A program made the translations under genes and the position numbers. A stretch of DNA of 64,000 nucleotides from an uncultured virus (IMG/VR IMGVR_UViG_3300046513_000233). Lineage: Duplodnaviria; Heunggongvirae; Uroviricota; Caudoviricetes. The stretch is taken from IMG/VR virus record IMGVR_UViG_3300046513_000233, one strand, 5' to 3'. This document shows positions 1 to 34,741 of this stretch, in pieces (positions within the stretch are counted from its first letter, which is position 1; every line of letters begins with the position of its first letter). The notes beneath the pieces were generated by a model. That model was not told the DNA's origin, ran no database searches, and saw only the letters and a list, made by a program, of their open reading frames with translations.

Positions 1-51
1 GTTACGCATAGAGATTTAGACGACGATATTCCATTTTAACGAGGACTCATT

Positions 52-1005: not shown

Positions 1006-1250
1006 ACGCGCCAGCCAACGATAACAACCCGCGGTGGCCACGCGGGCTTTCGCGATTGCGCGCTGCTGCCTACGTCGGAGTGACGCCGCAAGCGTTCGAC
1101 AGAATGGTTCTGTCGGAGGAGATGCCGAAGCCAAAACAGATTGGCGGGGTTCGGCGCTGGGATAAGCTGGCCGTCGATAGGTGCTTTGATGCGCTGTTCA
1201 ATACGCAGACTGACTTCGCAGGCGAAGAAGTCTACGATTTTGCCGCTTGA
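1002..1250 (+). CDS. excisionase / AlpA-like HTH protein
   Basis: PRGLSR..AAAYVGV....FD.MV....MPKP......RRWD motif; upstream of the integrase. Confidence 0.75.
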   Translation: MNAPANDNNPRWPRGLSRLRAAAYVGVTPQAFDRMVLSEEMPKPKQIGGVRRWDKLAVDRCFDALFNTQTDFAGEEVYDFAA

Positions 1251-1275
1251 CTCGTAGGGCGAATCGCCCTATTAA
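1247..1275 (+). promoter_or_regulatory. Promoter/operator repeat copy 1 (TTGACT, GTAGGGC-gaatc-GCCCTAT)
   Basis: -35 TTGACT at 1247, palindrome 1254-1272, -10 TATTAA at 17-bp spacing. Confidence 0.75.
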
Positions 1276-1300
1276 GGGTGAGCAGCAAGGGATGGCTCCA

Positions 1301-1528
1301 ATGACAACCCAGTACGAAGCCGGAAAGAATGCCCGCCTTAGCGGCGCCAAGTCGGACGCTAATCCGCACCGCGGCGAAGTTGTCCGCGGTATTCAGCGTT
1401 ACATGGCCGGCCAAGAGCAGGACGGTTCTGATTGGGCAGTCGGATGGCGCGATCAGAATGACTCAATGTCAAAACAGTTTCCAGCCGTCTCTTCTTTCCG
1501 TCGCAAGCAAAATAGGTATTACAAATGA
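1301..1528 (+). CDS. Rmf/CrpP-like small protein
   Basis: YEAGKNA..SG....NPH...W.VGW pattern; start codon uncertain (1292 or 1301). Confidence 0.5.
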   Translation: MTTQYEAGKNARLSGAKSDANPHRGEVVRGIQRYMAGQEQDGSDWAVGWRDQNDSMSKQFPAVSSFRRKQNRYYK

Positions 1529-1725
1529 ACAAGACGGCATCGGCCAGAAAGAACGGCGTGTGTGGCTACAAGGCTGTTGTTGTGTACGATGGCCGCACGC
1601 ACATACCGATTCAAAAGAATTTTAAAACTCGCGTTGAAGCGGTGGCGTACGCTCAAAAATGGATTGATGCCAACGACAGTCGTCCCGTTGGAGTTAGAAG
1701 CGAAAAGGTTACGGTAGGCAAATGA
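1525..1725 (+). CDS. hypothetical protein
   Basis: ATGA-coupled ORF. Confidence 0.5.
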   Translation: MNKTASARKNGVCGYKAVVVYDGRTHIPIQKNFKTRVEAVAYAQKWIDANDSRPVGVRSEKVTVGK

Positions 1726-1927
1726 TGACCGCGAGAAAATACACAAGGCGAGACGGAAAGCGGTTTGCACAAGAGGGCGAGTGCCCGAGCGCAGATATTC
1801 GCTTCGACAAATTTTCTGGCTGCGATTTCTATTGTAGCACATGCGGCGCACGTCATTGGGACGAGTGCAAGTTGCCGCCGGCAGCCCCGGTTTTTATGTA
1901 CGGCCAGATTTATCAGGAACAATCACA

Positions 1928-2155
1928 ATGAAATTCTATCAACTTCACCGCATCTGTGAGGGTGGGACCAGCGCAGGCTACGAATACTTCGCAAGTAGGC
2001 GCGAGGCCGAAAAGGCCCTAAACGTTTGGAGAAAGAACAGCCCCGGAGACGTAATAGACCAACAAGGCGACATTGAGCTAATCGATGTTGAGCCGACTCG
2101 GGTTGGAATTTTGCACGCTCTGAATCGCTACGCCAACCACGCTGATAACGGTTAG
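1928..2155 (+). CDS. hypothetical protein
   Basis: AGGA RBS and ATGA overlap (MKFYQLHR...). Confidence 0.55.
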   Translation: MKFYQLHRICEGGTSAGYEYFASRREAEKALNVWRKNSPGDVIDQQGDIELIDVEPTRVGILHALNRYANHADNG

Positions 2156-2161
2156 TTCACA

Positions 2162-3241
2162 ATGACCACCCGCCGCAAGCTGCCCAAATACATCACGTGC
2201 GACATCGGGCCGGACAAGAAAGAGCGATTCTATTTTCGCCGCCCAAAGAAGCCGAAGGTTCGCATTGAAGGCGTGCCGTGGACTCCAGCGTTCATGGCCC
2301 GTTGGGCCGCGGCGATGGGTGGCGAAAACGTTGTGGCGATCACACCCGGGCCGATCGTGCCGCGCAAGGTGAACGATTTCAATTGGCTTCTTGAACAGTA
2401 TTACGAAACTGGCGAGTGGAAGGGGCTTGACGACGCGTTGTCAAAGCCGATGCGTGGTCGCATTTATCGCCGCGTCGCTCGCATGCCGATCAAAGACGGC
2501 AGCAAGGTTCTCTTCGGTGACGTGCCGTTGACAGCTTGGAACCGGCAAGCTGTCCGCGCCATCCGCGACCGGCACGCCGAAACGCCAAGCATGTCAAACG
2601 AGATCGTGAAGGCGCTGCATGTTCTCTTTCGTTGGGCTGTCGACGCCGATCATATCGAGACGAATCCGGCTGCGGCCTTCCGTCGATTGAAGCCGAAGAA
2701 TGCTGACGGTCACCACACGTGGACTCTTGAGGAAGTCGAGACGTTCGAATCTACATGGGCCATGGGGACGCAAGAACGGCTAGCACTTGGCTTGCTGCTC
2801 TACACCGGGCAGCGGGCTTCCGACGTTCGGCAGTTCGGGCCGGAGCACGTGAAGCAGCACGAAGACGGCAAATGGTTGGATTTCACGCAACACAAAAACA
2901 GGAATAGCAAGCCGGTTCATTTGCAAATCCCGCTTCGTCCGGAGCTTGAAAAATTGATTGATGGAATTGAAACGAAGACGTTTCTGGCTCAAGCGAGCGG
3001 CAAGCCTCACACGCGGGCGAGCTTCACCGAGTTTTTCGCGGGCGCCTGCATAGCTGCGAACGTCCCCGGCCGATCGCACGGCTTGCGAAAGGCTGCAGCA
3101 ACCCGGCTTGCCGACAACAGCGCGACCGAAAAGGAAATTATGTCTATCACCGGACACACGACCATGAAGGAAGTTGAGCGCTACACGAAGGCCGCCAATC
3201 AGAAGAAGCTTGCTGCGGCTGCAACAAAGAGGGGTGCGTGA
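2162..3241 (+). CDS. int: tyrosine recombinase / phage integrase
   Basis: LLYTGQRASD (R), HGLRKA (HxxR), ITGHTT (H) and ERYT (Y) catalytic motifs; N-terminal arm-binding region. Confidence 0.95.
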   Translation: MTTRRKLPKYITCDIGPDKKERFYFRRPKKPKVRIEGVPWTPAFMARWAAAMGGENVVAITPGPIVPRKVNDFNWLLEQYYETGEWKGLDDALSKPMRGRIYRRVARMPIKDGSKVLFGDVPLTAWNRQAVRAIRDRHAETPSMSNEIVKALHVLFRWAVDADHIETNPAAAFRRLKPKNADGHHTWTLEEVETFESTWAMGTQERLALGLLLYTGQRASDVRQFGPEHVKQHEDGKWLDFTQHKNRNSKPVHLQIPLRPELEKLIDGIETKTFLAQASGKPHTRASFTEFFAGACIAANVPGRSHGLRKAAATRLADNSATEKEIMSITGHTTMKEVERYTKAANQKKLAAAATKRGA

Positions 3242-4336
3242 TGTACGACAAAAACGACCACCTGATGAAGACCAAGGAACGGCTAGACAAAGCTACTAAA
3301 GCTTACGCGTCGGCACAAACGGAATTCATTGAAGCCCAGCGCATACACCGGGACGCTTGGCGGGAACTCACGAGGGAGATTCATTAATGCCCAGACGTAT
3401 CCCGATCGCTACCGCGAAGGCGGTAGCCGAAAAACACGACCTGAAGCAGGTTCTCTTGATCGGCTGGGATGGTGAGCGGACTCACGTCGTCACCTACGGC
3501 AAGACCAAGGCGGATTGCGAGGCAGCCGCCAAGGCGCAAGATTTTTGGACCGGGAAGATTCGAGAGTTTTCGTTTGTGAGTGGCAGTGATGGGCAATCAG
3601 TCACGAAGTGAGGGAATGATGGACCTTTTGAGCGCTGAAAAAATCACATATCGCGGCAAGTTTCTTATCGATCTTTCGAGGGAGGAGTTGATCGATGCCC
3701 TGATGTATACGATCAAGTATATCGAAAAACAAAATCGGTGGCCTGCTAGCGGCTTAACAGTATCCGCCAGTTCTCTTAGTCAGCCACTACCTCGCTCTCC
3801 CTGAGGAATCGAGCATGACCAAACAAGAAGCTAAAGAGTTTTTTGCACGTAACCCGCAAGGGCTTCGAGATATTGAAAAATTGAGAGAGTCCGGTACGCT
3901 AGAAAAGTTGGATTCATACTATCTCATGGGCCGAGCCGCTAACGAACAAGATGGATTGGTGAACTGCGTCCCGGCGTTCCACGCCCTATACTCCCTGAGG
4001 AAGCCCCGATGACCGAACACAACAAGCCAGAAGACGACGATTGGGCGCACGGAGTGTTTTGGTTCCCCAAATACGGCGGGGTTGTTAAATTCATCCGAGG
4101 TAGGCGCCCAGACGATGCGACCCCGATCAAGGCGGAAGTCGCACCTTATCCGCTGATCTCAGAAGATGAGACTCCATGAGCAAGGAGCGCTGAAGTGAGA
4201 ATGATATTCGTATTCGCTACCGGACTGTTCTTCGGCTGGCTCATTGCCAACTACACCGAGCCGCCGAAAGAGGTCGTCCGCGCCAATCTGGCCGACCTAT
4301 ATCATTCACTTACTCGCTCTCCCTGAGGAACCGCCC

Positions 4337-4804
4337 ATGAACTGCCCCAAATGCAATGAGCCCTGCGACCGGGTCGAAGTCGACATTGGAGTCGGGGTCG
4401 AATGCGGCCCCTACGGCTGCCCGGGGTGTGGTTGGTCCGAGTACGAGCGATACGACCTGTCGGACGGAAAGAGCCCTGTAGACGCCCGGGGCGGGGCTAT
4501 AGACCAGTTTGGCTGCTACCATCCGCCCGGCAGTTCAATGGCGCTAGCGTATCGGTTGGCGGACACACCCTGCGGGTGGCGGGACGGAACCCATATCCCC
4601 TTGGCGGCTGCTGGCCTTCGCTCCACCGACCCCATCACCGTCAACGTGACCACGGAGGGGACGATAACCGGGCCGGTAGCAGAAGTTGACATGGCGGCTT
4701 CGTATACGATCGAAGCCACACTGAACGGGAAGACTTACCAGTGGACCGGGCAGAGGCCAAAGCCCCACGGAGACGGGTTCATTTTTCGATTTAAGGCCAC
4801 CTAA
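4337..4804 (+). CDS. Zn-finger hypothetical protein
   Basis: CPKC...CPGC; GAGG RBS. Confidence 0.5.
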   Translation: MNCPKCNEPCDRVEVDIGVGVECGPYGCPGCGWSEYERYDLSDGKSPVDARGGAIDQFGCYHPPGSSMALAYRLADTPCGWRDGTHIPLAAAGLRSTDPITVNVTTEGTITGPVAEVDMAASYTIEATLNGKTYQWTGQRPKPHGDGFIFRFKAT

Positions 4805-5020
4805 ATTGTCCAATAGCCAAAAGCAGCTTGGACAAAACGCAAAAAACCTCAATGTTTTTCGTATGATGTAATACCTCCGTCATACCCTATCGGTAATGCA
4901 GCCCATTGATTTCACTGAAGTTTTAAGCCTCTTGGACAATTTTTCCTATATTGAATTTCCAAGACATCTTGAAAAGTAGTCCAAGACGAAAACGGCGCTT
5001 GTCTATCTTGTCCCAGACGA
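4805..5020. other. putative attP region
   Basis: AT-rich noncoding gap downstream of int with repeated TTGTCCAA/TTGGACAA-type boxes (4806, 4828, 4932, 4979, 5008) flanking a central segment. Confidence 0.55.
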
Positions 5021-5100
5021 TGGCGCAATGAAGGTCTCTGTCAGAAATTTGCATCGTATTTCTTACTGAGCTAGCCTCTCGCTTTCAGCGAGGATTCCGC

Positions 5101-5445
5101 ATGCGTATCGCCTTGGTTGTCGCCACCCTTGCCGCCACGATCGCGCCAGCACTCGCGGATCAGGCCGCGGCCGATCAGTGGCTAGCCGAACAGCGGGCGA
5201 AGATTGCCGTAATGCGAGCCGATACGGTCAAGCGTGAGGCCGATCAAAAGGCGCTGTGCGATCGGCTAGGCGGGGTGAAGATCGGGCAGACGGCCGAAGG
5301 CGTCCGCAAGTCATGCTGGGGCAAGCCAGCCCGGGTCAATGAGACCCTGACAGCCGGCCACCGGCACGAGCAGTGGGTTTATGGAACCGGCCATTACGTC
5401 TACCTGACAGACGGCATCGTCACAGCCGCTCAGGCGGCCCGCTAG
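5101..5445 (+). CDS. exported small protein (signal peptide, WGKP..V....EQWVY motif)
   Basis: Hydrophobic N-terminus ending ALA; SmpA/BamE-like pattern. Confidence 0.55.
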   Translation: MRIALVVATLAATIAPALADQAAADQWLAEQRAKIAVMRADTVKREADQKALCDRLGGVKIGQTAEGVRKSCWGKPARVNETLTAGHRHEQWVYGTGHYVYLTDGIVTAAQAAR

Positions 5446-5637
5446 GGGCCTGTCGGTTTCGGGCACCGATGTAGCTCCCGGGGCGGATTAACGTCCCCAG
5501 CCTCCGCGCTGCCAGATGGCGGCCCGAAAATCATTCCCGCCCACATCCACGCCGCGAGAGCAGCCCCGGCGCTAATCCCAATCCAGAATCCAGCCGTTCG
5601 TACCCATGGTTTGTTCACGCCGCCCCCTACTCGTTAA

Positions 5638-5731
5638 GGTAGCGGTAGCAGATACATCGGGTACACGCTAGCTATTTTCGCTACATGGGGCTTGCTTTGC
5701 GGCGCGCGATCGTGTAGCTATTCTAGCGACA
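5638..5731. promoter_or_regulatory. three type-2 operator boxes TGTNGC-N7-GCNACA
   Basis: GGTAGC-N7-GATACA (5638), GCTAGC-N7-GCTACA (5667), TGTAGC-N7-GCGACA (5713). Confidence 0.6.
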
Positions 5732-5751
5732 CTGGAATCGGGGGAACGAAA

Positions 5752-5988
5752 ATGGCAATCGAATATCGGACGGTTGATCGTCACGGCAAAGGCACTCTGG
5801 ACCTTGAACGCTCCGTTCATTCAGATGGTGCCGATTGGCGCAACTGGCGTCTCGTGGCCGGTGCGATGCCGGCAGCGATTGCTAGCCTGCGTTGTGATTG
5901 CGGGAACGGCTTGCTCTCAGACGAAGAGCGGAAGATTCGTGAACTGGCTTGGTGGCGCTCCCGCAAGAAGCAGAAGGTTGCGGCATGA
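5752..5988 (+). CDS. hypothetical protein
   Basis: GGGG/GGAA RBS; C-terminal AA. Confidence 0.55.
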   Translation: MAIEYRTVDRHGKGTLDLERSVHSDGADWRNWRLVAGAMPAAIASLRCDCGNGLLSDEERKIRELAWWRSRKKQKVAA

Positions 5989-6155
5989 CCACACCATACG
6001 ACAACGGCTATCACGCCGGCCTCTTGAACGACCGCACCAACCCGCACGCGCTCTGGTCTCCGTCTTGGTTGCCTTGGCTTCTTGGCAACAGCCTTGGCCT
6101 AGACGTTCATTGTGCGATCGTCGAAGCCGTCTATTTGAGGAACATGGAAGAATGA
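5985..6155 (+). CDS. Rmf/CrpP-like small protein
   Basis: YDNGYHAG.....NPH....W..WL.G. Confidence 0.45.
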   Translation: MTTPYDNGYHAGLLNDRTNPHALWSPSWLPWLLGNSLGLDVHCAIVEAVYLRNMEE

Positions 6156-6308
6156 GCGTCTGGAAAGAACCAACAACCGTAACTATCCGTCGAGTCAACG
6201 GCCGGTGGTTGATCTTCAATAGCAAGGGCGTTCGCGTCGACAGCAAGGCTCTGTTTAAAGACGCCGACAAGGCCGCAAAAAGATTGTTTCCGGACTCGAA
6301 GATAGTTG

Positions 6309-6337
6309 TTGATTGATAGGGCGTGCCGCCCTATGGT
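6309..6337 (+). promoter_or_regulatory. Promoter/operator repeat copy 2
   Basis: TTGATT-g-ATAGGGC-gtgcc-GCCCTAT, -10 TATGGT at 17 bp. Confidence 0.85.
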
Positions 6338-6366
6338 CTGGTCATCGGCAAACGGGAGCGGCACCA

Positions 6367-6609
6367 ATGACCTTCACCAAGTGGCTTGAAACTTTCATCA
6401 ACGAAAAGGGCCTTGATCTTGAACAGGTGTTCACTGTCAACGGCAAGTCAGGCCCGAACTACATTCCCCTCGCTTGCGTGATCGAAGCAATCAAGAACGC
6501 ACCCGCTCACGAACAGGCCGGGATTAAGTCGATGGTGGTCAAGATCGATTTTCGTAACGGCGATGTCTGCCACTACTTCAAGCATCTGGCGCAAGCCATC
6601 GCGATCTAA
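6367..6609 (+). CDS. hypothetical phage protein
   Basis: GGAG RBS directly after the promoter repeat. Confidence 0.7.
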   Translation: MTFTKWLETFINEKGLDLEQVFTVNGKSGPNYIPLACVIEAIKNAPAHEQAGIKSMVVKIDFRNGDVCHYFKHLAQAIAI

Positions 6610-6624
6610 CCGGGGGATAGAGCA

Positions 6625-6903
6625 ATGATGAACACCGCAGAAAAAATCGAAACGATCGTTCTTTGCTACTTGCGCAGCCGCACCGCGCAAGGCACATGCG
6701 GCTCGTTGTTCGAATTCGAGCCCGGCCGCTACCGTGTCACCGCGGACGGTAAAACCTTCATCGTCTATCGCGAGACCATCGGTTGGTGTGTCCACTTCAA
6801 AGGCTTTCAAGGCGTCGACAGCGAACTGTACCTTGCCGCTTCCAACTCTCTTGACGGCGGTTCGCGCCGTGATGTTTCGACGATGGAAGCCGCCCTGTCA
6901 TGA
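6625..6903 (+). CDS. hypothetical protein
   Basis: ORF in operon. Confidence 0.55.
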   Translation: MMNTAEKIETIVLCYLRSRTAQGTCGSLFEFEPGRYRVTADGKTFIVYRETIGWCVHFKGFQGVDSELYLAASNSLDGGSRRDVSTMEAALS

Positions 6904-8210
6904 ATATGCATGTACCCACCCTGCAGCGCAGCCTTTCCGATGTCGTGTCGGAGTACGAGCACAAGCGCAGCCAAGCGCAGGCAGCGCTAGCCGAGTTCAA
7001 CGCGGCTGGCGATGCGCTCAAGATGGCGGCTACAATCGCGGGGACTTTTGGGCGGACTCAAATCGATACCGGCCACGTTTACGAGTCGGTTCTGTCGGAC
7101 AGCCTCTTGAAGTCGGCATGGCGCCACGTTTACGACGGGCTCAATATCGAACGGATTTGCAGCGCCAACGATAAGCGCCGATTCGATCAGGCGCTAGAGA
7201 AGCCGGAGCCGTTCACCCTCGAAAACATCCGCGCAACGTTCGGCCAGTTCATCTTAGACCCCCGCGGCAACATTTTGCGCGGACTTGCCGAAGTGTTTTG
7301 CAACCTTGATCCGGCATACAAGAGCCACGACAAGGTCAAGATTGGAGTTGCCGGCCTTCCCAAGCGGGTCATCATTCGTAGCGTTGGCAACTATGGCAGC
7401 TATGGGCGTGATCAGGTCGTTAACATCCTGAACGCTTTAGCGGCCTATCAGGGCAAGCCGCTAGTTGAGCATGACGAAGTTTCTGCGCTGCTTAGCGACG
7501 AATGCGCGTTGCTAGAGAACGGCGAAAAGCCATACGGCTACCGCGGCGCAATGGTCAAGGTAACCGCCCGCGGCGTTCGTCTCCGTCGCTTCGCCAACGG
7601 CAACGGACATTTGATTTTCGAACCCGAGACTCTGAAGGATATTAACCGAGCCCTCGCGGAATATTACGGAAACGTTCTGCCGGACACGACCGAAGAGAAG
7701 CCGGAAAAGACTCGGGCAAGCACCGCAGTTTCAAAAGACCTTCAGTATTACCCGACCCCGGCGAAGGTGGTTGAGACCGTGATTGCCGATCTTTATCCGA
7801 TCAAAGGCCAAAAGGTTCTAGAGCCCTCGTGCGGTTGCGGGCGGTTTATGGATGCTCTGCGAAAGGCTGGCGCAGATGTCTACGGAATCGAAGTCGACGC
7901 ACGTAGGGCCGCGGAAACGCGAGCCAAGGGGCATAGCGTGTTGCTGGCCAACTTCCTAGAAACTGTCCCGACTCCGATCTACGACCGAGTCGTGATGAAT
8001 CCGCCATTCTACGGCAAGCACTATGCAAAGCACGTTGAGCACGCCTTAAAGTTTCTGAATCCCGGTGGTGTTCTAACCGCAATCCTGCCGGCTACGGCTC
8101 GATACGATCATGGACTCCTTGATGGCCGGTGGTCTGATTTGCCGGTTGGTTCTTTCAGTGAGAGCGGAACCAACACCAACACAACTATTTTGAAGATGAC
8201 TGCAAAATAG
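6900..8210 (+). CDS. DUF4942-like domain plus SAM-dependent amino (N6-adenine) methyltransferase
   Basis: YYPTP, VLEPSCGCG (motif I), VVMNPPF (motif IV); RFANGNGHL.F upstream domain. Confidence 0.8.
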   Translation: MNMHVPTLQRSLSDVVSEYEHKRSQAQAALAEFNAAGDALKMAATIAGTFGRTQIDTGHVYESVLSDSLLKSAWRHVYDGLNIERICSANDKRRFDQALEKPEPFTLENIRATFGQFILDPRGNILRGLAEVFCNLDPAYKSHDKVKIGVAGLPKRVIIRSVGNYGSYGRDQVVNILNALAAYQGKPLVEHDEVSALLSDECALLENGEKPYGYRGAMVKVTARGVRLRRFANGNGHLIFEPETLKDINRALAEYYGNVLPDTTEEKPEKTRASTAVSKDLQYYPTPAKVVETVIADLYPIKGQKVLEPSCGCGRFMDALRKAGADVYGIEVDARRAAETRAKGHSVLLANFLETVPTPIYDRVVMNPPFYGKHYAKHVEHALKFLNPGGVLTAILPATARYDHGLLDGRWSDLPVGSFSESGTNTNTTILKMTAK

Positions 8211-8213
8211 GTG

Positions 8214-8242
8214 TTGACGTATAGGGCGTGTTGCCCTATCGT
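8214..8242 (+). promoter_or_regulatory. Promoter/operator repeat copy 3
   Basis: TTGACG-t-ATAGGGC-gtgtt-GCCCTAT, -10 TATCGT. Confidence 0.9.
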
Positions 8243-8268
8243 CTGGTCATTGAAACGGAGTTGAGCAG

Positions 8269-8484
8269 ATGACCAAGGCAGAGACCGCTTTCTACACCCG
8301 GGCACAGGCCGCAGGTGCCGCAGCTTTCGCCGCTGGCATCAAGTCTGCACCCTGCCTTGACCCGGCCGTTATGCCTCTGCTTCGCGAAGCTAACCCCACT
8401 GGAAAGATTGGCTGCAAACTCTCAACGGCTGTTTGGAAGGGTTGGGCCAACGGTTGGCACACCGCCAACCTTGCTTCGAATTAA
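8269..8484 (+). CDS. Rmf/CrpP-like small protein
   Basis: AQAAGAAAF.AG...AP.....WKGWANGW; GGAG RBS. Confidence 0.5.
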   Translation: MTKAETAFYTRAQAAGAAAFAAGIKSAPCLDPAVMPLLREANPTGKIGCKLSTAVWKGWANGWHTANLASN

Positions 8485-8493
8485 AAACAGTTG

Positions 8494-8522
8494 TTGACGT
8501 ATAGGGCGTACGGCCCTATATA
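8494..8522 (+). promoter_or_regulatory. Promoter/operator repeat copy 4
   Basis: TTGACG-t-ATAGGGC-gtacg-GCCCTAT, -10 TATATA. Confidence 0.9.
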
Positions 8523-8549
8523 AGAGACACACCGACCGGAGACGCGCAC

Positions 8550-8882
8550 ATGACCATCACCGCTCTTGAAGTTCTCACCCTCGCCCGCACCGCAGCCGAA
8601 GCCAAGGCGCTGGCTATCTGGGACCGCGACGGTAAGGAAGACCGCGGGTCATGCGGTAGCGCGATTATGTACCTAAAGGGCAATACGAAGCTTGCCAAAG
8701 AAGCGATCGCCCATGGCTTCGCGTCCGCTGGCGGAGACATTTCAGTTAAGCACTTCATCCCGGCCGGTGTCTGCAGCCAGAGCGCGGACATTTATCAGGA
8801 CTCAATGTCGGCATTCCGCGAAGTGCTGATTGCTTACGGCTACGAAAAGGCCATCAAAAAGTTTTGGACCTACATCGATTAG
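8550..8882 (+). CDS. hypothetical phage protein
   Basis: GGAG RBS after the promoter; DRGSCG...SQS motif. Confidence 0.7.
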   Translation: MTITALEVLTLARTAAEAKALAIWDRDGKEDRGSCGSAIMYLKGNTKLAKEAIAHGFASAGGDISVKHFIPAGVCSQSADIYQDSMSAFREVLIAYGYEKAIKKFWTYID

Positions 8883-8885
8883 TTG

Positions 8886-8914
8886 TTGACTCATAGGGCT
8901 CCTCGCCCTATGGT
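8886..8914 (+). promoter_or_regulatory. Promoter/operator repeat copy 5
   Basis: TTGACT-c-ATAGGGC-tcctc-GCCCTAT, -10 TATGGT. Confidence 0.9.
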
Positions 8915-8940
8915 CAATCATCAGAACAAAGGAACGCCAC

Positions 8941-9132
8941 ATGCTCTTCATCCACGAAAACACCAGCCGCGAAGAACTTGAAACCGCAGCCCGCGAAGCC
9001 GGCCTTCCGATCTTGGAAGACACCACCAAGCTTCGTCACAGCATTGTGGCTTGGATCGAAGCCGGCGACGAGTGCGGCGCGGAAAACGCCCTTGACGATT
9101 TCAACTACGTTGGCAGCCGCCATCACTACTGA
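8941..9132 (+). CDS. small acidic hypothetical protein
   Basis: AAGGA RBS after the promoter; E/D-rich. Confidence 0.7.
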   Translation: MLFIHENTSREELETAAREAGLPILEDTTKLRHSIVAWIEAGDECGAENALDDFNYVGSRHHY

Positions 9133-9182
9133 AACAGCCGGGGCGCAAATGCCCCACCACTTCCAACCAAAGAGGACTCCCC

Positions 9183-9959
9183 ATGCAATTCCGTGACCAC
9201 GAAGCCGTCAAGGGCAAGCGCGACTCCTACCCCGTCGACCCGCGGGCGCTGAAGGTAGACCCGACGTACAACGTGCGGGACATGAAAGACCCTGAGACCA
9301 TCGCGCACGTTCGCTGGCTGGCCGACTCAATCAAGGAGTCCGGTGTTCGCGTGCCGCTGGAAGTCCGCTTGGAAGGCGAAGACATCTACGTTGTTGCCGG
9401 CCACTGCCGGCACGCTGCAACCATGCTGGCCATCAGCGAGGGCGCGGAGATCGAAACCGTTCCGACCATTCCGGAGCCGAAGGGCACCAACGAAGTTGAG
9501 CGCGTAATCAATCTTGTTATTTCGAACTCCGGCAAGGCGTTGTCGCCGCTGGCTATCGCGGAAGTCGTTCGGCGCCTGATGGCCTTCGGCTGGGATGCCG
9601 CGAAGATCGCGCAGCGACTCGGCTGGAAGTCTGCCGGCGCCGTCGACCAATACGTGACGCTTCTTGGTGCGGCTCCGGACGTGCAAGCCATGGTGCGTAG
9701 TGGCGAGGTTGCGGCCAGCACCGCGGCCAAGGTGGTCAAGAAGGAAGGCGCCAAGGCCGGTGCGACGCTGGCCGCAGCGGCCAAGAGCGGCGGGAAGGTG
9801 ACAGCGAAGACCATCCGGCAGAGCAAAGGCGAATTCGATCCGACGCCGAAGAATGTCGCGGTGCTCGTGAAATTCGTTCGCGACATCGCAGCCGGCAACA
9901 GCGGTCTCAAGCCCGCCGCTCAGAAGATCGTAACGCAGCTTAGCTTGGAAGTGGCGTGA
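9183..9959 (+). CDS. ParB/Srx N-terminal domain protein with HTH
   Basis: YNVR, LADSI...GV..PL.V, VVAGHCR..A; IAQRLG HTH. Confidence 0.85.
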   Translation: MQFRDHEAVKGKRDSYPVDPRALKVDPTYNVRDMKDPETIAHVRWLADSIKESGVRVPLEVRLEGEDIYVVAGHCRHAATMLAISEGAEIETVPTIPEPKGTNEVERVINLVISNSGKALSPLAIAEVVRRLMAFGWDAAKIAQRLGWKSAGAVDQYVTLLGAAPDVQAMVRSGEVAASTAAKVVKKEGAKAGATLAAAAKSGGKVTAKTIRQSKGEFDPTPKNVAVLVKFVRDIAAGNSGLKPAAQKIVTQLSLEVA

Positions 9960-10071
9960 TGACGCCGGAGGAACGAGCGAAAGACTTCTACAGCCTGCCG
10001 CCGTCAGCTAGAACGCTGGCGGCACTGGCGAGAATGATCCGGCAGGCAGAGCGGGACGTGAAGGAATCGAA

Positions 10072-10812
10072 ATGACCAGCGACAAAGACATAGTTACCAA
10101 CAACGAAATCTTGCGCGGCTTAGTCGGCTCTACAGCGCACGGCATCAACATTATTGGTCAAGACGACCGCGACGAAACCGGAATCTTCATTGAGCCTCCG
10201 CAGAATGTCTGCGGTCTTGAGCCGCTAGACCATTACATTTGGCGAACGCAGCCCAACGGCGTTCGTAGCGGCCCCGGCGATCTTGATTTGACGATGTACA
10301 GCCTTCGCAAATTTTGCCGTCTTGCGGCCAAGGGCAATCCGTCTGTAATGATTTTGCTTTGGCTGCCAGAGTATATCAACATCACAGATGAAGGTAAGAT
10401 GTTGGTCAAGGCGCGCGATTGTTTTGTTAGTCGCGAAGCCGGCGAACGTTTCTTAGGTTACCTGATCGCACAGAAACAAAAAATGAAAGGCGAGAAGGCT
10501 CATACCGTCAGCCGTCCGGAGTTGGTCGCGAAGTACGGCTACGATACCAAATTCGCCATGCACGCGTTGCGACTTGGCTTCGAAGGTGTCGAGCTAATGA
10601 GAAGCGGAACGCTAACACTGCCGGTTGCAGAACCGAACCTGACGACTCTCCGCGCTATGAGAGTTGGTGAGATCAACGCGGCCGATGCCTTGCGGTTGAT
10701 CGAAGAGACGGAGTCGACTCTTAGGGCGCTAGTTGAACATTGCCAGTGGGACGCGGATACGGCCGGCATCAATAGGCTTATGGTCGACCTACACAGCAGG
10801 CATTGGCGGTAG
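10072..10812 (+). CDS. Pol-beta superfamily nucleotidyltransferase (RlaP/YcgL-like)
   Basis: GSTAHG....DDRDETGIF, KF..LA.KGNP, YDTK.A.HA.RL. Confidence 0.85.
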   Translation: MTSDKDIVTNNEILRGLVGSTAHGINIIGQDDRDETGIFIEPPQNVCGLEPLDHYIWRTQPNGVRSGPGDLDLTMYSLRKFCRLAAKGNPSVMILLWLPEYINITDEGKMLVKARDCFVSREAGERFLGYLIAQKQKMKGEKAHTVSRPELVAKYGYDTKFAMHALRLGFEGVELMRSGTLTLPVAEPNLTTLRAMRVGEINAADALRLIEETESTLRALVEHCQWDADTAGINRLMVDLHSRHWR

Positions 10813-11009
10813 TGACTCCCCTCCTCCACTTCGTCGGCTTCAAAGACGATCGCTACCACGCCGCGGTCAAGGTCTGGGGCAAGCCGGATTTCTTTCATCG
10901 GTTCTATGACCGTCGCGCGGAGGCTGATATAGCCCCGGGCGACGTTGTCGTTTTTGCCTGCCCTGAAGTGGTGCGTGAATTTTCTTTTGACGATTCTGCA
11001 AATTGGTAG

Positions 11010-11038
11010 TTGACGCCTAGGGCGGTTGGCCCTATGGT
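11010..11038 (+). promoter_or_regulatory. Promoter/operator repeat copy 6
   Basis: TTGACG-c-CTAGGGC-ggttg-GCCCTAT, -10 TATGGT. Confidence 0.9.
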
Positions 11039-11065
11039 GAGTCTATCAGGAACGGAGTTAAGCAG

Positions 11066-11344
11066 ATGCACACCCGCAGCGCGAAGAACAAGGTGACCGG
11101 CAAGTTCACCGTGACGGTTACCGACTGGAATGGCGTTGAGTGCTTCCGCGGAGAGTTCGCAGATATGCATGACGCCGATTTGGCCGCCTCCCGCGAAGAG
11201 CGGGCTATGATGCTCCGCATGCAGGCGACACCGAGCGGACAGAGCGCACGCAGCTACATGGATGCGATGGAAGATGACGCGCCGTTGTCGCTTGATGAAA
11301 TCTTCATGTCGGACGACGAGCTTTTGCGGGAGTTGGAGTCGTGA
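11066..11344 (+). CDS. hypothetical protein with acidic C-terminus
   Basis: GGAG RBS after the promoter. Confidence 0.7.
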   Translation: MHTRSAKNKVTGKFTVTVTDWNGVECFRGEFADMHDADLAASREERAMMLRMQATPSGQSARSYMDAMEDDAPLSLDEIFMSDDELLRELES

Positions 11345-11516
11345 AACAGCCAACCGGAATGGAAGAAGTCATAGCCCTAGAGAACGCCATCAGGGCGGGG
11401 CTGCCGAAGGCCGTGGGGCGTTTGGCCGATGAAGCCCGGGCGATCATGGGCGGGAAGCGTCCGGCCTCCGGCAGCCGCCTAGAGGCTCTGCGGGAGATAG
11501 TCGGGAGGATGGGGAA

Positions 11517-11747
11517 ATGAAGGGCTACTACGTCACCCTACAACGGGGCGAGCGTACCGCATGGTTGCTAGGTCCATTTAAAGACCATCAACGAGCCAAA
11601 GATGCCGTCCGAGAGGCCACGGCTAAGGCGAATGAGCTAGACCCCAGAGTTCACTTCGACGCGTATGGGACCTCGTCCATGGATGCGGCCACCCTGCCCC
11701 CGGGAAAACTAAATTCGATCCTGCCGCATTTAGTTGTTGACGCATAG
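11517..11747 (+). CDS. hypothetical phage protein
   Basis: YYVT......LLGPF motif; stop codon lies inside the next promoter repeat. Confidence 0.6.
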   Translation: MKGYYVTLQRGERTAWLLGPFKDHQRAKDAVREATAKANELDPRVHFDAYGTSSMDAATLPPGKLNSILPHLVVDA

Positions 11748-11765
11748 GGCCGTCTGCCCTATGTT
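11737..11765 (+). promoter_or_regulatory. Promoter/operator repeat copy 7
   Basis: TTGACG-c-ATAGGGC-cgtct-GCCCTAT, -10 TATGTT. Confidence 0.9.
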
Positions 11766-11789
11766 TGTTTCAACAGAAGGAACGAGCAC

Positions 11790-12053
11790 ATGGCCATCAA
11801 CAAGTCGGCTTCCAAAATCGGTACCCTCCGCTTCAACAACGGCAACGAAACCGCCCTCTACATCGGCGCCAACAGCAACACCGGGGCAACGATCGTTTGG
11901 CAGGTTCTGAACGGCGGCAAGTCCACCCGCCTCACCGGCAAGCACATTGCCGCGCTCGCCAAGGAACTGGCCGCGGTGTTCACCAAGAAGGAAGCCGCGT
12001 GGATCGATGAAGTCAACTTCGCCGCGCTCGATTGCCTCACCCGGTTGGCGTAA
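11790..12053 (+). CDS. hypothetical protein
   Basis: AAGGA RBS after the promoter. Confidence 0.7.
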   Translation: MAINKSASKIGTLRFNNGNETALYIGANSNTGATIVWQVLNGGKSTRLTGKHIAALAKELAAVFTKKEAAWIDEVNFAALDCLTRLA

Positions 12054-12056
12054 GTC

Positions 12057-12092
12057 AAAAAAAATAGCCCCGCCGAAGCGGGGCTTTTCTTT
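12057..12092. terminator. bidirectional rho-independent terminator
   Basis: A8-T-AGCCCCGC-cgaa-GCGGGGCT-TTTCTTTT between convergent operons. Confidence 0.9.
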
Positions 12093-12607
12093 TATGCGCT
12101 GCCCTTAACCAGCTTCAGCCCGAACCCGCCGCTGTAGGCTCGCCAGCCGAGATAGAATTCTACCGGGCCGCTGTACGACACGAACGGCAGAGGCCCCGCG
12201 ATCTTAAGTGCAGCGAACGCCGCCAAGATCGCCAGAGGCCACCACAACCAGATAGCGCCTACGATCGCCAGCGCAGCCACGACAGCGGCCCCAGCGCTGA
12301 AGGGCGTCCACAGGACCGACCACTTCCAGCCCCGCGCTGGCGGGCTCGCGTCGCGCCATGTGGTGAGCAGCACGGGCGCCAGCCCGACAGCCGTATAGTT
12401 CTTGTCTTCCACCCCCAGCACATAGCCAACCAGATTCATGCCCGGGTTACGGCAGAACCAATAGAAGTTTCGCAGTAGCTGATTGGTCACCCCGGGAAGG
12501 TATGGCGTGCCGTTGTTGATCGTCGGCGCCGTCCACCCATCAGGCCCGACAAGCCACCACAGCGGGTTGAGCTTGTTCCAGATGGGTACCGGAGTCCTGT
12601 TCGTCAT
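12092..12607 (-). CDS. membrane protein
   Basis: Hydrophobic W/A/L-rich segments. Confidence 0.55.
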   Translation of the reverse strand: MTNRTPVPIWNKLNPLWWLVGPDGWTAPTINNGTPYLPGVTNQLLRNFYWFCRNPGMNLVGYVLGVEDKNYTAVGLAPVLLTTWRDASPPARGWKWSVLWTPFSAGAAVVAALAIVGAIWLWWPLAILAAFAALKIAGPLPFVSYSGPVEFYLGWRAYSGGFGLKLVKGSA

Positions 12608-12641
12608 TTGAATTCGTTCGTACATTGTATCTCCAAAACAG

Positions 12642-12672
12642 AAAAAGCGCCCCGCTCGAATGAGCAGGGCGC
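12642..12672 (-). terminator. rho-independent terminator
   Basis: GCGCCC..GCTC/GAGC..GGGCGC hairpin followed by a U-tract on the minus strand. Confidence 0.6.
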
Positions 12673-12923
12673 GGGTAACGAAGGCTATAGGTTCGCGACA
12701 AACTCGCGAACGTCCGTAGGTGGTTTATTTGATCGAACCGGCAAGCCGTCCCCTAGCTCACCGGAAGCCCGGCGCCTTTCAAGGTCTTCAAACGCTTTGT
12801 TCATCTGCTCGCAAATCTCCTCCGCGGTTGCCGGCTTGTCTCCGCGGGTGAATTTGAAGTTCACCAACTTGCGCGATGGATCGCCAAATAGACGATCCAT
12901 CAGCTTGGTTTGCTCCGGCCCCA

Positions 12924-13457
12924 TCACGCAGCCCAACTCAGATCGCGAGCGAACTCGTTGACCTTGTCGCGCAACTCTTCAATCGTGCCGCTGTTGTCGA
13001 TTACCGCGGCCGGGTTCTTTGGCTTGAACTGCTCCGACACATGATCGCTGTTGATGCCGCCTCGCCCGACAAGCTGCAGCACCACACCGCCCCGCAGCAC
13101 AATCGCGGCCTCTTCGTTGTCGTGGCGAAGGTCGTCGAAAAGCAGGTTCTCTGCTTCGCTCTTCGCCCCGAACTCGATATCAACCCAAAAGTCTTCGCCG
13201 CCGAACTCCCTGCCCCACTGGCCAATGCCCTGCATGAACTCACGCGGAGACTTGTTGTTCAGGTACGGAGATGGCAGTTCTTTTAGATCGCCTTCAACAT
13301 ATCGTTCGATGTCCTCAACGCCCTGATACCTCAACAGAGCGCGAAACATTTCCTTCAAAGCGTTGGCGAACTTGCCGCGGGTAAATCCGCGCTCCAACAG
13401 AACGTCTGCCGTGGTGCCCTTGCCGCTGCCTGCCTCGCCAGCGATTCCGATAATCAT
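12924..13457 (-). CDS. deoxynucleoside monophosphate kinase
   Basis: IIGIAGEAGSGKGT P-loop, FANALKE, SPRE.MQ..G, DDLR..NE, H.SE. Confidence 0.85.
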   Translation of the reverse strand: MIIGIAGEAGSGKGTTADVLLERGFTRGKFANALKEMFRALLRYQGVEDIERYVEGDLKELPSPYLNNKSPREFMQGIGQWGREFGGEDFWVDIEFGAKSEAENLLFDDLRHDNEEAAIVLRGGVVLQLVGRGGINSDHVSEQFKPKNPAAVIDNSGTIEELRDKVNEFARDLSWAA

Positions 13458-13792
13458 AGATACATCACTTTCAAATCAAGAGCCTCTGCAACTGCCTTCT
13501 CCGCAATCGCGCCTTTGCTGGTCGTCCAGTTCGGTAGCAACGCAACGGCTTCGGCGTGGCTGCAGACGAACTCTAAATCCTTGCCGAACACTAGTCGGCC
13601 ATCAATTCCAGCTATTGCCTCGTCGCCAGAGGGATTGTCGCGATAGATACCCGGGCCGTAAATCTTCTCCGCGCTCTCTACCGGATTGAACACCTCGTGA
13701 CCTTCAGCGCGTAGCTTGGCCGTCGCGTCATTGAATGCCTGATAGCCGAAATATGGCAAACCACGCATTTTGCCAGCAACGTAAATCTTCAT
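13454..13792 (-). CDS. DUF4406 (nucleoside 2-deoxyribosyltransferase-like) protein
   Basis: KIYVAG.M.G.P....AF, VFNP, LLPNW..SKGA.AE. Confidence 0.8.
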   Translation of the reverse strand: MKIYVAGKMRGLPYFGYQAFNDATAKLRAEGHEVFNPVESAEKIYGPGIYRDNPSGDEAIAGIDGRLVFGKDLEFVCSHAEAVALLPNWTTSKGAIAEKAVAEALDLKVMYL

Positions 13793-13793
13793 G

Positions 13794-14174
13794 TCACCAC
13801 TTCTTTCCGTTCGCAGCCATACGAGCTTCGCGGGTGTGATCTTTGCGAGTGGCGTTGTACGCCATCTTTTCATGAACCGCGCCGTCAAGGTCTAGGCCGT
13901 TGTCGCCGGCATAGTCGAAGATTCGAATGAGAGCGTCCGCCAACTCGACTTCAACTCCCTTGCGATGCGGCAAGTGATCGTCCATCAAGTTTTTGCGTTC
14001 GGCCTCGAATGCCTCCGATAGCTCCGAATGCATCAGTGCGAAGCGTTCACCCTTATTGAGAGTTAGCGGCTCGCCTGTCTCAAGATTGGTGTAGAAGTGG
14101 GACGCAGCGGCCCGGCAATGTCGGGCCAGATCGTTGAGGGGAGTCGACGATGTAACTTGGAACACCGGCATCAT
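13794..14174 (-). CDS. MazG-like NTP pyrophosphohydrolase
   Basis: LMHSELSEAFE, VELADALIRIFD, EKM.YN..R. Confidence 0.85.
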   Translation of the reverse strand: MMPVFQVTSSTPLNDLARHCRAAASHFYTNLETGEPLTLNKGERFALMHSELSEAFEAERKNLMDDHLPHRKGVEVELADALIRIFDYAGDNGLDLDGAVHEKMAYNATRKDHTREARMAANGKKW

Positions 14175-14734
14175 TGCCCCGCCCTCACGCGTCCGGAGAT
14201 ATGCTCAATAGCGTCCTGAACGTCATACGTGACCAACGTTGCAAAGTTGTACATCACGTCATAGCGCTCCGGCTCCTCTTCCAATAGGATCACAGCCGGC
14301 ACGCCACCGCGAGCCGCCCAGCCGAATTCGATATGGCCCGACCTACCGGCCGGCATGACCATAATGACGCCTTCGCTTCGAAGGATGTTGTCACGGTCCA
14401 ACGCGAAAGTGTTCTGAGCCGCCCGACCGGCCAGAGCTTCCACGAACGATCGGCCGCGAATCTTCTCGTACTCAAACCAATGGTCGTCGGCCTTCTCACC
14501 CGTCCCCCACCAATCATCGAAGGCTTCGAAGCCGGCTGCTCGTACGGCGTTGCCTACTGTCGGGATGTTCTTGTTTCTCAGTGAGCCAATGATGTAGATG
14601 CACGGCTTGCGGACGTGCGCTACAGGCCACGGCTTAGCCGCAGAAACGTGCGACTGTGACGGCAATTCGGATGCGCTTAACGTGTGCGTGAAACACGGTT
14701 CTGCCTTCGTAGTCAGATCAATGGTCGTTAGCAA
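14171..14734 (-). CDS. nucleoside 2-deoxyribosyltransferase-like protein
   Basis: IYIIGS.RN, F..D...I..S..V.MV.PAGRSGH.EFG; start uncertain. Confidence 0.65.
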   Translation of the reverse strand: MLTTIDLTTKAEPCFTHTLSASELPSQSHVSAAKPWPVAHVRKPCIYIIGSLRNKNIPTVGNAVRAAGFEAFDDWWGTGEKADDHWFEYEKIRGRSFVEALAGRAAQNTFALDRDNILRSEGVIMVMPAGRSGHIEFGWAARGGVPAVILLEEEPERYDVMYNFATLVTYDVQDAIEHISGRVRAGQ

Positions 14735-14747
14735 TTTGCTTTCTCCT

Positions 14748-14984
14748 CTAAAGCGTTTTTCTAGTCCCAATAACCGTGCCGCAGAATGCTCCAGCCATTG
14801 CGGGTAGCAGCATCCACGGATCATTGACGTAGTTGATTGCGGCGTACCCGCTCAACGCTATGATAGCTGCGGCGTAGACACCGGCAATCATGGCGCGATG
14901 TGCCGTAATGGCCGCGGTGTACTTTGCCCACACGAGATCAAGAACGAACAAGGCCACGAACACGATTGCGCATTGAACAAGCAT
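14748..14984 (-). CDS. small membrane protein
   Basis: Three hydrophobic segments; GAF.GT. Confidence 0.6.
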   Translation of the reverse strand: MLVQCAIVFVALFVLDLVWAKYTAAITAHRAMIAGVYAAAIIALSGYAAINYVNDPWMLLPAMAGAFCGTVIGTRKTL

Positions 14985-15349: not shown

Positions 15350-15499
15350 TCCGAATCCCGTTCCGCCTTCAATTTTCTAGCGTGAGACAGGTTTCGCTTG
15401 CCGGTAGCGTTTAGCTTGCCGCGTCTATTCATGGACTCCAGCCACTTCAATTCGTCGTCGTTATCCCAATGATCTTCAATATCGTCATCGTCAAACATG

Positions 15500-34233: not shown

Positions 34234-34262
34234 TTGACTCATAGGGCGGTTGGCCCTATCAA
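34234..34262 (+). promoter_or_regulatory. Promoter/operator repeat copy 8
   Basis: TTGACT-c-ATAGGGC-ggttg-GCCCTAT, -10 TATCAA. Confidence 0.9.
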
Positions 34263-34288
34263 TGGAACATCAGAAACGGAGACGGAAA

Positions 34289-34573
34289 ATGACCACCTAC
34301 GCACAGTACCTCAACGGCGAGACCAAAATCGGCGGGCTCAACGAAGCTGATCGCAAGACTCTTGTTCTTGGCTGGCTTGTCGCAAACAACGCGGCGCAGA
34401 CTGAAACACGCTATGCCCTGTTCTGGGGTGGCCGCATCCTGAAGAGCGAGCCAATCGAGATGTTCACTCGCCGGAACGACTCCTTCTCTGTGAAGGGCGG
34501 CAAATGGGTTGAGGTGAACGAAATTCCCGCAGATGCAGAGTTCATCGGCCGATACCCGGCACCGAAGCAGTAA
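34289..34573 (+). CDS. hypothetical protein (antisense island)
   Basis: GGAG RBS after the promoter repeat. Confidence 0.7.
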   Translation: MTTYAQYLNGETKIGGLNEADRKTLVLGWLVANNAAQTETRYALFWGGRILKSEPIEMFTRRNDSFSVKGGKWVEVNEIPADAEFIGRYPAPKQ

Positions 34574-34711: not shown

Positions 34712-34741
34712 TTGACGAACTAGGGCGTTGTGCCCTAGGGT
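34712..34741 (+). promoter_or_regulatory. Promoter/operator repeat copy 9
   Basis: TTGACG-aa-CTAGGGC-gttgt-GCCCTAG, -10 TAGGGT (18-bp spacing). Confidence 0.8.

Follow-up and report, generated by a model that had tools for sequence, protein, structure and literature searches.

Nine promoters of an uncultured phage share a spacer palindrome that is probably the operator of an Aca-type autorepressor

The closest described relatives of the system reported here are the operons in which anti-CRISPR (acr) genes are controlled by an anti-CRISPR-associated (Aca) repressor. In phage JBD30, Aca1 binds the inverted repeat IR2, ATTAGGCACAATGTGCCTAAT, as a dimer through the half-site GGCAC, and the core of this repeat, TAGGCAC-AAT-GTGCCTA, is a 17-bp TAGG...CCTA palindrome (PMC8633003). 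The same paper names R22, S31, Q32, R44, R47 and Y49 as DNA contacts of Aca1 and reports that R44, R47, Y48 and R59 are required. In acr-aca1 operons, as PMC13551039 describes them, the DNA motif lies in the promoter, transcription starts ~10 nt downstream and an Aca1-bound RNA hairpin follows directly after the start; Aca proteins are also predicted there to control neighbouring operons, with ‘up to three’ neighbouring motifs. Aca10 of Pseudomonas citronellolis binds AATACGCTCATTGAGCGTATT across the –35 and –10 elements (PMC9410881). Another repeated phage promoter, the promoter early stem-loop (PeSL), has a stem-loop that adjoins the promoter and acts as a terminator (PMC2839356); PeSLs mediate cassette shuffling in T4-like phages, for which mini-circles have been shown (PMC2839356, PMC4122927). 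Here we analyse a 64,000-nt stretch of DNA from an uncultured virus of the Caudoviricetes (IMG/VR record IMGVR_UViG_3300046513_000233; hereafter the window, meaning the whole stretch), in which nine promoters carry one palindrome in the spacer between their –35 and –10 elements and in which a gene for a 79-residue helix-turn-helix (HTH) protein lies behind the last of them. Sequence comparison, structure prediction and analogy with acr-aca operons make it probable that these form an Aca-type autorepressor circuit, with nine sigma-70-type promoters that each hold a 17-bp spacer operator for the predicted HTH repressor.

Searched with at most one mismatch, the palindrome TAGGGC-N5-GCCCTA has ten matches in the window. 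Nine are exact and all of these lie on the + strand (starts at 1255, 6317, 8222, 8502, 8894, 11018, 11745, 34242 and 34721), by comparison with a chance expectation of 0.06 and a maximum of one in 100 shuffles. The remaining match, with one mismatch at 24330, is treated as chance, as it has no –35 element and lies inside a gene of the – strand. The full word TTGAY-N3-TAGGGC-N5-GCCCTAT is exact in eight of the nine copies (starts at 1247, 6309 with TTGAT, 8214, 8494, 8886, 11010, 11737 and 34234; expectation 0.02). The ninth copy, at 34712, has TTGACG, one extra spacer base (18 bp) and TAGGGT as its –10 element. A first-pass annotation, made by a model from the sequence alone, had named exactly these nine places. 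The copies, together with a further palindrome that has a longer centre, are as follows.

1247..1275, + strand: copy 1, TTGACT, 17 bp, TATTAA; palindrome 1255-1271; heads the block 1301-6316 with the integrase gene
6309..6337, + strand: copy 2, TTGATT, 17 bp, TATGGT; palindrome 6317-6333
8214..8242, + strand: copy 3, TTGACG, 17 bp, TATCGT
8494..8522, + strand: copy 4, TTGACG, 17 bp, TATATA
8886..8914, + strand: copy 5, TTGACT, 17 bp, TATGGT
11010..11038, + strand: copy 6, TTGACG, 17 bp, TATGGT
11737..11765, + strand: copy 7, TTGACG, 17 bp, TATGTT
34234..34262, + strand: copy 8, TTGACT, 17 bp, TATCAA; opens a + strand island within – strand structural genes
34712..34741, + strand: copy 9, TTGACG, 18 bp, TAGGGT; promoter of the operon with the HTH gene at its end, with a homologous copy in the relative L139
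34592-34609, + strand: tenth palindrome, TAGGGC-N6-GCCCTA (TAGGGCAATCCAGCCCTA), with a 6-nt centre and no –35 element, between the first island gene and copy 9

The arms of the nine copies are invariant and their 5-bp centres variable, and the common geometry is TTGACN, then 17 bp, then TAtNNt. In each copy, an ATG with a ribosome-binding site lies 23–33 nt downstream of GCCCTA, and five upstream open reading frames (ORFs; 1002-1250, 6152-6316, 8550-8882, 10803-11009 and 11517-11747) stop in or beside the repeat. The flanks share pieces in a mosaic manner: caaaataggtgTTGAC is common to the 8214 and 34234 copies, aacggagtt(g/a)agcagatg to the 8214 and 11010 copies and (g/c)gtctggtcat to the 6309 and 8214 copies. 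The element spacing of 17 bp, with 18 bp in the last copy, the short leader with its ribosome-binding site and ORF, the position of the upstream stop codons and the mosaic flanks had all been noticed in the first-pass annotation, and each of them is seen in the sequence. The tenth palindrome might serve as another binding site or act at the RNA level, as a hairpin between genes.

The repeat is not confined to this phage. The exact 26-bp word was found at 77 loci in 64 IMG/VR contigs, with 82 instances and unrelated flanks; five of these contigs are near-identical to the window, and the other 59 form the non-redundant set used for the linkage tests below. Arrays are also present in several unrelated viral contigs, with five copies each in L184 and L153. 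Chance or recent duplication is rejected as the origin of the repeats, since the copies are unlike in flanks and centres and unrelated contigs also carry the word. Promoters of a phage-type RNA polymerase, or hairpin promoters of the N4 type, are likewise rejected, as no such polymerase is present among the window genes. Tyrosine recombinase-type enzymes need identical overlap regions; because the centres of the copies differ, and because integrase homologues occur in only 5 of the 59 motif contigs, we infer that the repeat is not a tyrosine recombinase or integron-like site.

The gene to which the palindrome is tied, in both directions of search, is the following.

34969-35208, + strand: gene of a 79-residue XRE-type HTH protein (P0001), the proposed Aca-like repressor; 248 bp after copy 9 and 727 bp after copy 8

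When the ORFs of the window were compared with the 59 motif contigs by tblastn, the HTH gene had the most homologues (14), followed by a methyltransferase (7), the integrase (5) and the 82-residue regulator at 1002-1250 (2), and no homologue of the CI-like repressor of the window was listed among these contigs. A profile of the HTH family gave 54 matches in 49 of the 59 motif loci. In 47 of the 59 contigs, a homologue lies at most 2.5 kb downstream of the motif on the same strand, a zone that makes up 8.7% of the searched space, and the binomial p for this placement is about 1e-42. The ORFs directly upstream of the HTH gene are far less constant: 31 of them fall into 29 clusters, and both pairs come from near-identical contigs. 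As the upstream partners nearly all differ, the conserved unit consists of the promoter, variable small genes and the HTH gene. A toxin–antitoxin pair, with the toxin first and an HTH antitoxin second, is rejected because the gene before the HTH gene is not conserved.

For the reverse test, two subfamily alignments served to collect loci solely by likeness of the protein, and the palindrome was sought on the same strand in the upstream sequence of each locus (at most 2.5 kb). Among the 35 loci of the RTVRRWE subfamily, 12 have the palindrome without mismatch, 8 with one mismatch and 6 with two, and 9 have none. The corresponding numbers for the window's own subfamily (RT[SAG]RR[WY]; 66 loci, two of which are the window's own twins) are 19, 12, 16 and 19. 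A palindrome with at most one mismatch is therefore present at 20 of 35 and 31 of 66 loci, mostly in a ttgac context, as compared with a chance of about 0.006 per locus (about 0.09 when two mismatches are allowed). In addition, symmetric arm variants occur in the same promoter position, with TACGAC..GTCGTA beside a protein with RTVQRW and TAGGTA..TACCTA beside HVRKW, as well as TAGGTC..GACCTA and TAGGAC..GTCCTA; these examples are few and were compared by inspection, not by formal covariation. Symmetric variants beside variant proteins are as expected for a co-evolving protein and site. The palindrome is most likely the operator of the 79-residue HTH protein. The first-pass annotation had read the fixed arms and variable 5-bp centre as the operator of a dimeric protein, and a candidate gene that is linked to the palindrome in both directions and whose product is predicted to pair with itself supports this reading.

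The HTH protein has weak matches to HTH_31, HTH_3 and HTH_8 in Pfam, and its AlphaFold model comprises five helices with a predicted local distance difference test score (pLDDT) of 82.5. Its family has at least 1320 members in a large protein collection, which are mostly unnamed or described as ‘YiaG’-type regulators, and NCBIfam gives only sub-threshold MqsA-family matches, for 24 of 27 members. Searched against solved structures, the family profile finds Aca10 (7xi5; E 3.4e-7), Aca3 (7.7e-7) and Aca1 (1.4e-6), followed by HigA2, and the top five Foldseek matches of the model are Aca1 chains with 33–35% identity. The alignment with Aca1 keeps the residues that match R22, S31, Q32, R44, R47 and Y49 and differs at V45 (T) and Y48 (R); these two changes could account for the different inner operator bases. 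The homodimer prediction scores 0.86, against 0.00 for the best of three controls, with runs that agree in at least 97% of contacts and a partner pLDDT of at least 86; in the calibration, the threshold for a pass was attained by 20 of 30 proteins whose solved structure is a pair of one chain and by 1 of 23 whose solved structure is a single chain. Since the dimers of Aca1 and Aca10 are solved, the result may reflect likeness to them and not be independent support. From its sequence and model, the protein is a predicted repressor and appears to be a distant relative of Aca1 and Aca10.

The arrangement resembles the acr-aca1 operon of JBD30, as the papers cited above describe it, in several respects: a small XRE-type HTH dimer (predicted here), a 17-bp TAGG...CCTA inverted repeat inside a strong promoter of the same geometry, which here is that of the regulator's own operon, variable small genes first and the regulator gene last, conserved Arg contacts and, in relatives but not in the window itself, a leader hairpin (21 of 75 distinct leaders). 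By comparison, the half-site here is GGGC with a 5-bp centre, whereas that of Aca1 is GGCAC with a 3-bp centre, and only the 17-bp length and the outer TAGG/CCTA are common to both operators. The sequence likeness is also remote (E 1.4e-6 by profile and 0.07 with the single sequence), Aca10 and Aca3 being slightly better by profile. Furthermore, nine operator promoters are distributed here over two genome regions, as compared with the ‘up to three’ motifs of PMC13551039, and the cargo contains no known anti-CRISPR and the likely host is rhizobial. Aca10 (7XI5), the best profile match among solved proteins, is likewise a dimeric HTH protein whose palindrome overlaps the –35 and –10 elements, and its TACGC...GCGTA site resembles the TACGAC..GTCGTA variants beside some members of the HTH family; its site, however, is 21 bp long with a 1-bp centre and controls a single operon (PMC9410881), and Aca10 ranks only 34th by fold.

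The leader hairpin of the relatives, GGGC-N4-9-GCCC, often GGGCAATGGTGCCCGCC, lies ~17 nt after the motif (L143, L154, L156, L159, L164, L181, L188, L195, L196, L204, L205 and others) and repeats the operator's inner arms, in agreement with the RNA motif reported for Aca1 operons; this place is taken by a different hairpin in other leaders, and the nine leaders of the window, which are too short for it, have none. In many relatives (L307, L324, L326, L332, L341 and others), the –35 element is directly preceded or overlapped by another full or half site, for example TAGGGCC before TTGACA, which recalls the IR1/IR2 pair described for JBD30 in PMC8633003. No phage promoter of the TAGGGC/GCCCTAT kind was found among the papers that a full-text search listed, and TAGGGC and GCCCTA are absent from the running text, figure logos and supplements apart, of PMC12658196 and PMC9410906. 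The kind of circuit is known; as far as the literature search reached, figures and supplements excluded, the operator word, the distant HTH protein and the scale of nine promoters are new in print.

Single elements of this design are familiar from classical phages. At lambda PR, the 17-bp operator OR1 lies in the spacer between the –35 and –10 elements, and the C1 operators of phage P1 are scattered over many operons, with one repressor for many promoters. The window resembles both in its 17-bp spacer operator and its proposed single repressor for many promoters. By comparison, the HTH protein is not the immunity repressor; a separate CI-like S24 repressor region is present at 59187-60016, and the palindrome copy that a lambda-type immunity layout would call for is absent from the interval 59871-60016 beside the CI-like S24 gene.

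In the proposed mechanism, all nine strong sigma-70-type promoters would fire on entry with the host RNA polymerase. A dimer of the HTH protein encoded at 34969-35208 would bind TAGGGC-N5-GCCCTA in the –35/–10 spacer and block RNA polymerase. Because its gene sits behind copy 9, the protein would shut off its own synthesis and, simultaneously, the eight other copies, and the accumulating repressor would turn the nine promoters down together. The acr-aca operon design would in this way be widened to about 25 genes, and the conserved promoter would also mark the borders where the gene content of relatives differs. The integrase may belong to this regulon, since copy 1 heads the integrase block, and in L184 and L137, too, the integrase has a copy upstream of it. 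The suggestion in the first-pass annotation of a co-repressed early or anti-defence regulon fits, by analogy, the nearest known systems with Aca1-, Aca3- and Aca10-type repressors. A wider proposal is offered only tentatively: one Aca-like repressor might time a genome-wide early programme of nine promoters and couple an anti-defence burst to the integrase block and the lysogeny choice, the operator-bearing promoter might be a portable unit for the gain, loss and exchange of anti-defence genes in arrays of up to seven cassettes, and the operator copy in the mRNA hairpin might be a second, translational brake in relatives.

Several findings weigh against the Aca-type circuit. No HTH gene was found downstream of the motif in 12 of the 59 contigs, 5 of which have less than 500 bp of downstream sequence; the five-copy relative L184, whose contig ends early, is among the 12. 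The 9 of 35 and 19 of 66 protein-found loci without a palindrome are the counterpart of this on the protein side. The likeness to Aca1 is weak when the HTH protein is searched alone (Aca1 first, E 0.07) and by fold (Foldseek E-values 0.08–0.11 for the Aca1 chains), and small HTH domains easily resemble each other. A consensus promoter scan flags only four of the nine copies (4 of 7 within 1-13000 and 0 of 2 within 33000-37000), and its total is not above shuffles (7 found versus 5.0 ± 2.0); promoter activity is therefore argued from geometry and comparison, not from the scan. The window cargo gives no known anti-CRISPR or anti-defence family in PHROGs, Pfam or NCBIfam, the small ORFs being blank, and of 88 cargo ORFs of relatives 75 are without a PHROG and no match is named anti-CRISPR or anti-restriction. 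Finally, the word also heads host genes without sign of an HTH gene, namely tRNA-Met in Oxalobacteraceae and rpmB in Bradyrhizobium, and in the host tRNA-Met promoter the arms drift (TGGGGC, TAGGGG/CCCCTA).

In bacterial genomes, the word occurs at 54 loci; ~17 are expected by chance if base frequencies are taken as equal, and the bacterial set is therefore mixed. In Pseudoduganella, Duganella and Massilia, it lies 16 nt before the tRNA-Met gene (L079, L081, L088 and L092; 12 of the 23 genus loci L273-L295). Within the genus, this promoter has TAGGGC or TGGGGC as its left arm, one species has TAGGGG/CCCCTA and four have a rearranged spacer. In Bradyrhizobium (L086, L093, L097, L106 and L131), the word lies ~95 nt before the gene of ribosomal protein L28 (Pfam E 2.8e-26 for L086:422-625), and Rfam finds nothing between the word copies and this gene. 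A small number of chance events, passed on within two genera, could account for both host cases.

The palindrome might instead be the operator of another regulator, for which the CI-like S24 repressor (59187-59870), the 82-residue regulator (1002-1250) and a host factor are candidates; we consider this unlikely. The phage does encode a CI-like repressor with a Peptidase_S24 domain, the small ‘transcriptional regulator’ gene ends inside copy 1 and the same word is found in host promoters. The intergenic region beside the CI-like gene, however, contains no palindrome, and among the 59 motif contigs no homologue of the CI-like protein is listed and homologues of the 82-residue regulator occur in only 2. 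The motif is also found in contigs binned to many phyla, which argues against a single host factor, although the binning of phage contigs is unreliable and about 17 of the 54 matches are expected by chance.

A poor prospect is also given to PeSL-like promoter–terminator cassettes, in which the palindrome would act as a nucleic-acid hairpin, either an attenuator of transcription from upstream or a recombination hot spot, with no dedicated binding protein. Upstream genes do end within or next to the repeat, the scan for terminator-like hairpins accepts one copy (11742-11764), the cassette content of relatives differs at the repeat, and in the host tRNA-Met promoters the arms change with pairing kept (TAGGGG/CCCCTA, and TGGGGC opposite GCCCTA as G-T). 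The likeness to PeSLs includes repeated strong early promoters that flank ORFans at the borders of insertions, deletions and replacements between relatives (PMC2839356, PMC4122927), and such shuffling is known for the PeSLs of T4-like phages (PMC2839356). Against a plain hairpin stand the arm letters, which are constant in the nine copies and in 75 distinct copies of unrelated phages, the second count being biased because the search required these letters, and the lack of a T run in eight of the nine copies. In addition, the palindrome lies inside the spacer and not beside the promoter, and a hairpin leaves the tight linkage to one HTH family unexplained. PeSLs, which the first-pass annotation had offered as the known analogue, therefore make a poorer analogue than Aca systems, as the PeSL stem-loop is a terminator beside the promoter (PMC2839356); of the nine spacer palindromes here, a single copy is terminator-like. 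The descriptions in PMC2839356 and PMC4122927 further concern lytic myoviruses and a system with no repressor, by comparison with the HTH-linked spacer palindrome seen here.

It is very improbable that the palindrome is simply the favourable spacer of a strong promoter, copied along with it and with the HTH gene as a passenger: the same word does head the highly expressed host genes of tRNA-Met and ribosomal protein L28, and early phage promoters do resemble strong host promoters (PMC9410906), but the protein-found loci carry symmetric arm variants in the same position, the homologue Aca1 is shown in PMC8633003 to bind a very similar 17-bp site, and the host cases are explicable by inheritance as above.

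With the Aca-type circuit as the preferred reading, the relatives of the window show what varies behind its promoters. Relatives at 65–83% DNA identity keep the promoter copies together with the DUF3850 gene, the regulator, the integrase and the ParB-like and Sak4-like genes and have other genes behind the promoters. The homology of L184 ends at 1272, the end of copy 1, and several matches to relatives are confined to promoter and leader. L139 retains the regulator as well as the promoter of its operon and the preceding gene; in the place of the 72-residue gene between promoter and regulator, it has an unrelated gene of ~80 residues. A contig of run X8 matches the window as far as 6334, where GCCCTAT of copy 2 ends, and then departs, with 17 other letters, 27 letters that equal the leader and start of the 8269 cassette, and sequence unlike the window thereafter; this is a single contig with depth 4 and a short side, and weak evidence. 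The relatives are therefore unlike in their cassettes, and the breakpoints lie at the promoter. These breakpoints fit the proposal of the first-pass annotation that modules are shuffled by recombination at the repeat, but the case for it is circumstantial: the five near-identical contigs show no cassette difference, no recombination product or circular joint was seen among the assembled contigs, and a similar picture would result from plain mosaicism of phages at gene borders.

From the near-identical contigs, the window differs structurally only in short non-aligning stretches at 14225-14248 and 12244-12283. Foreign contigs join the window only over a 32-bp patch of the ParB-like gene at 9820-9852 in three of four runs, and only at the terminator hairpin at 12058-12099 in four of four runs; these two short stretches are common to other DNA of the same habitats.

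The genes behind the promoters are arranged as follows.

1301..6316, + strand: block behind copy 1; small ORFs, integrase 2162-3241, more small ORFs, last gene 6152-6316
6367..8210, + strand: cassette behind copy 2; 80-residue (phrog_6004), 92-residue and 436-residue DUF4942 plus methyltransferase proteins
8269..8484, + strand: cassette behind copy 3; one 71-residue ORFan
8550..8882, + strand: cassette behind copy 4; one 110-residue ORFan
8941..11009, + strand: cassette behind copy 5; 63-residue ORF, ParB-like gene, 38-residue ORF, RlaP-type nucleotidyltransferase, 68-residue ORF
11066..11747, + strand: cassette behind copy 6; ORFs of 92, 59 and 76 residues
11790..12053, + strand: cassette behind copy 7; one 87-residue ORFan
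12066..12085, either strand: bidirectional terminator-like hairpin at the end of the array, before the convergent – strand block
34289..34573, + strand: 94-residue cargo gene behind copy 8, with a 70% identical homologue in L139
34761..34979, + strand: 72-residue cargo gene between copy 9 and the HTH gene, with an unrelated gene in its place in L139

The regulon cargo thus amounts to ~25 genes, which are mostly small ORFans together with a DNA methyltransferase, a ParB-like protein, a nucleotidyltransferase and the integrase block. Because the proposed circuit has the design of Aca-controlled acr-aca operons, these are most likely early genes of host takeover or anti-defence. The label ‘anti-defence’ is drawn from this analogy and from the presence of the methyltransferase and ParB-like genes; no family match supports it. 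The 72-residue protein has sub-threshold Rmf/CrpP-like matches (Pfam RMF 25.3 bits versus a cut-off of 27.9; NCBIfam Rmf_like_phage E 0.002). An alignment of four small regulon ORFs (34761-34979, 1301-1528, 5985-6155 and 8269-8484) has invariant N, P, W and G residues at 18–26% identity.

Anti-CRISPR and other anti-defence genes are found most productively by way of Aca-controlled promoters, a route that has so far been taken mainly in elements of Pseudomonas, Pectobacterium, Neisseria and Streptococcus. In the window, ~25 genes are marked by an operator word and an HTH subfamily of their own, as is unrelated cargo in at least 59 further viral contigs, most of it without a family; this cargo provides anti-defence candidates that can be tested for phages infecting rhizosphere bacteria. 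It is also plausible that nine promoters, including the one before the integrase, answer to one Aca-type repressor, as compared with the up to three neighbouring motifs given in PMC13551039.

PHROG and Pfam scans of its genes identify the window as phage DNA, with the following layout.

1-12053, + strand: block that carries the integrase, methyltransferase, ParB-like and nucleotidyltransferase genes
2162-3241, + strand: tyrosine integrase (PHROG/Pfam)
6900-8210, + strand: DUF4942 plus methyltransferase protein, 436 residues (PHROG/Pfam)
9183-9959, + strand: ParB-like protein (PHROG/Pfam)
10072-10812, + strand: RlaP-type nucleotidyltransferase (PHROG/Pfam)
12092-59870, – strand: long block of lysis, tail, head, portal, terminase and primase genes (PHROG/Pfam)
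59187-59870: CI-like repressor with a Peptidase_S24 domain (PHROG/Pfam), with its own divergent intergenic region reaching to 60016

Genes on the + strand resume from 60017. A search of isolated phages found no close DNA relative of the window. The large terminase is 58–59% identical to those of Sinorhizobium and Rhizobium phages, and the array was found in 21 public runs, all of rhizosphere metagenome DNA, with no RNA run among them. Given this terminase similarity and the confinement to rhizosphere runs, the host is likely a rhizobial or other soil proteobacterium. In addition, the – strand interval 12924-17914 contains a deoxynucleoside monophosphate (dNMP) kinase gene, two nucleoside deoxyribosyltransferase-like genes, a gene for a Mom-like protein and an HNH endonuclease gene, a cluster of DNA-modification and nucleotide genes which suggests that the phage DNA is perhaps modified.

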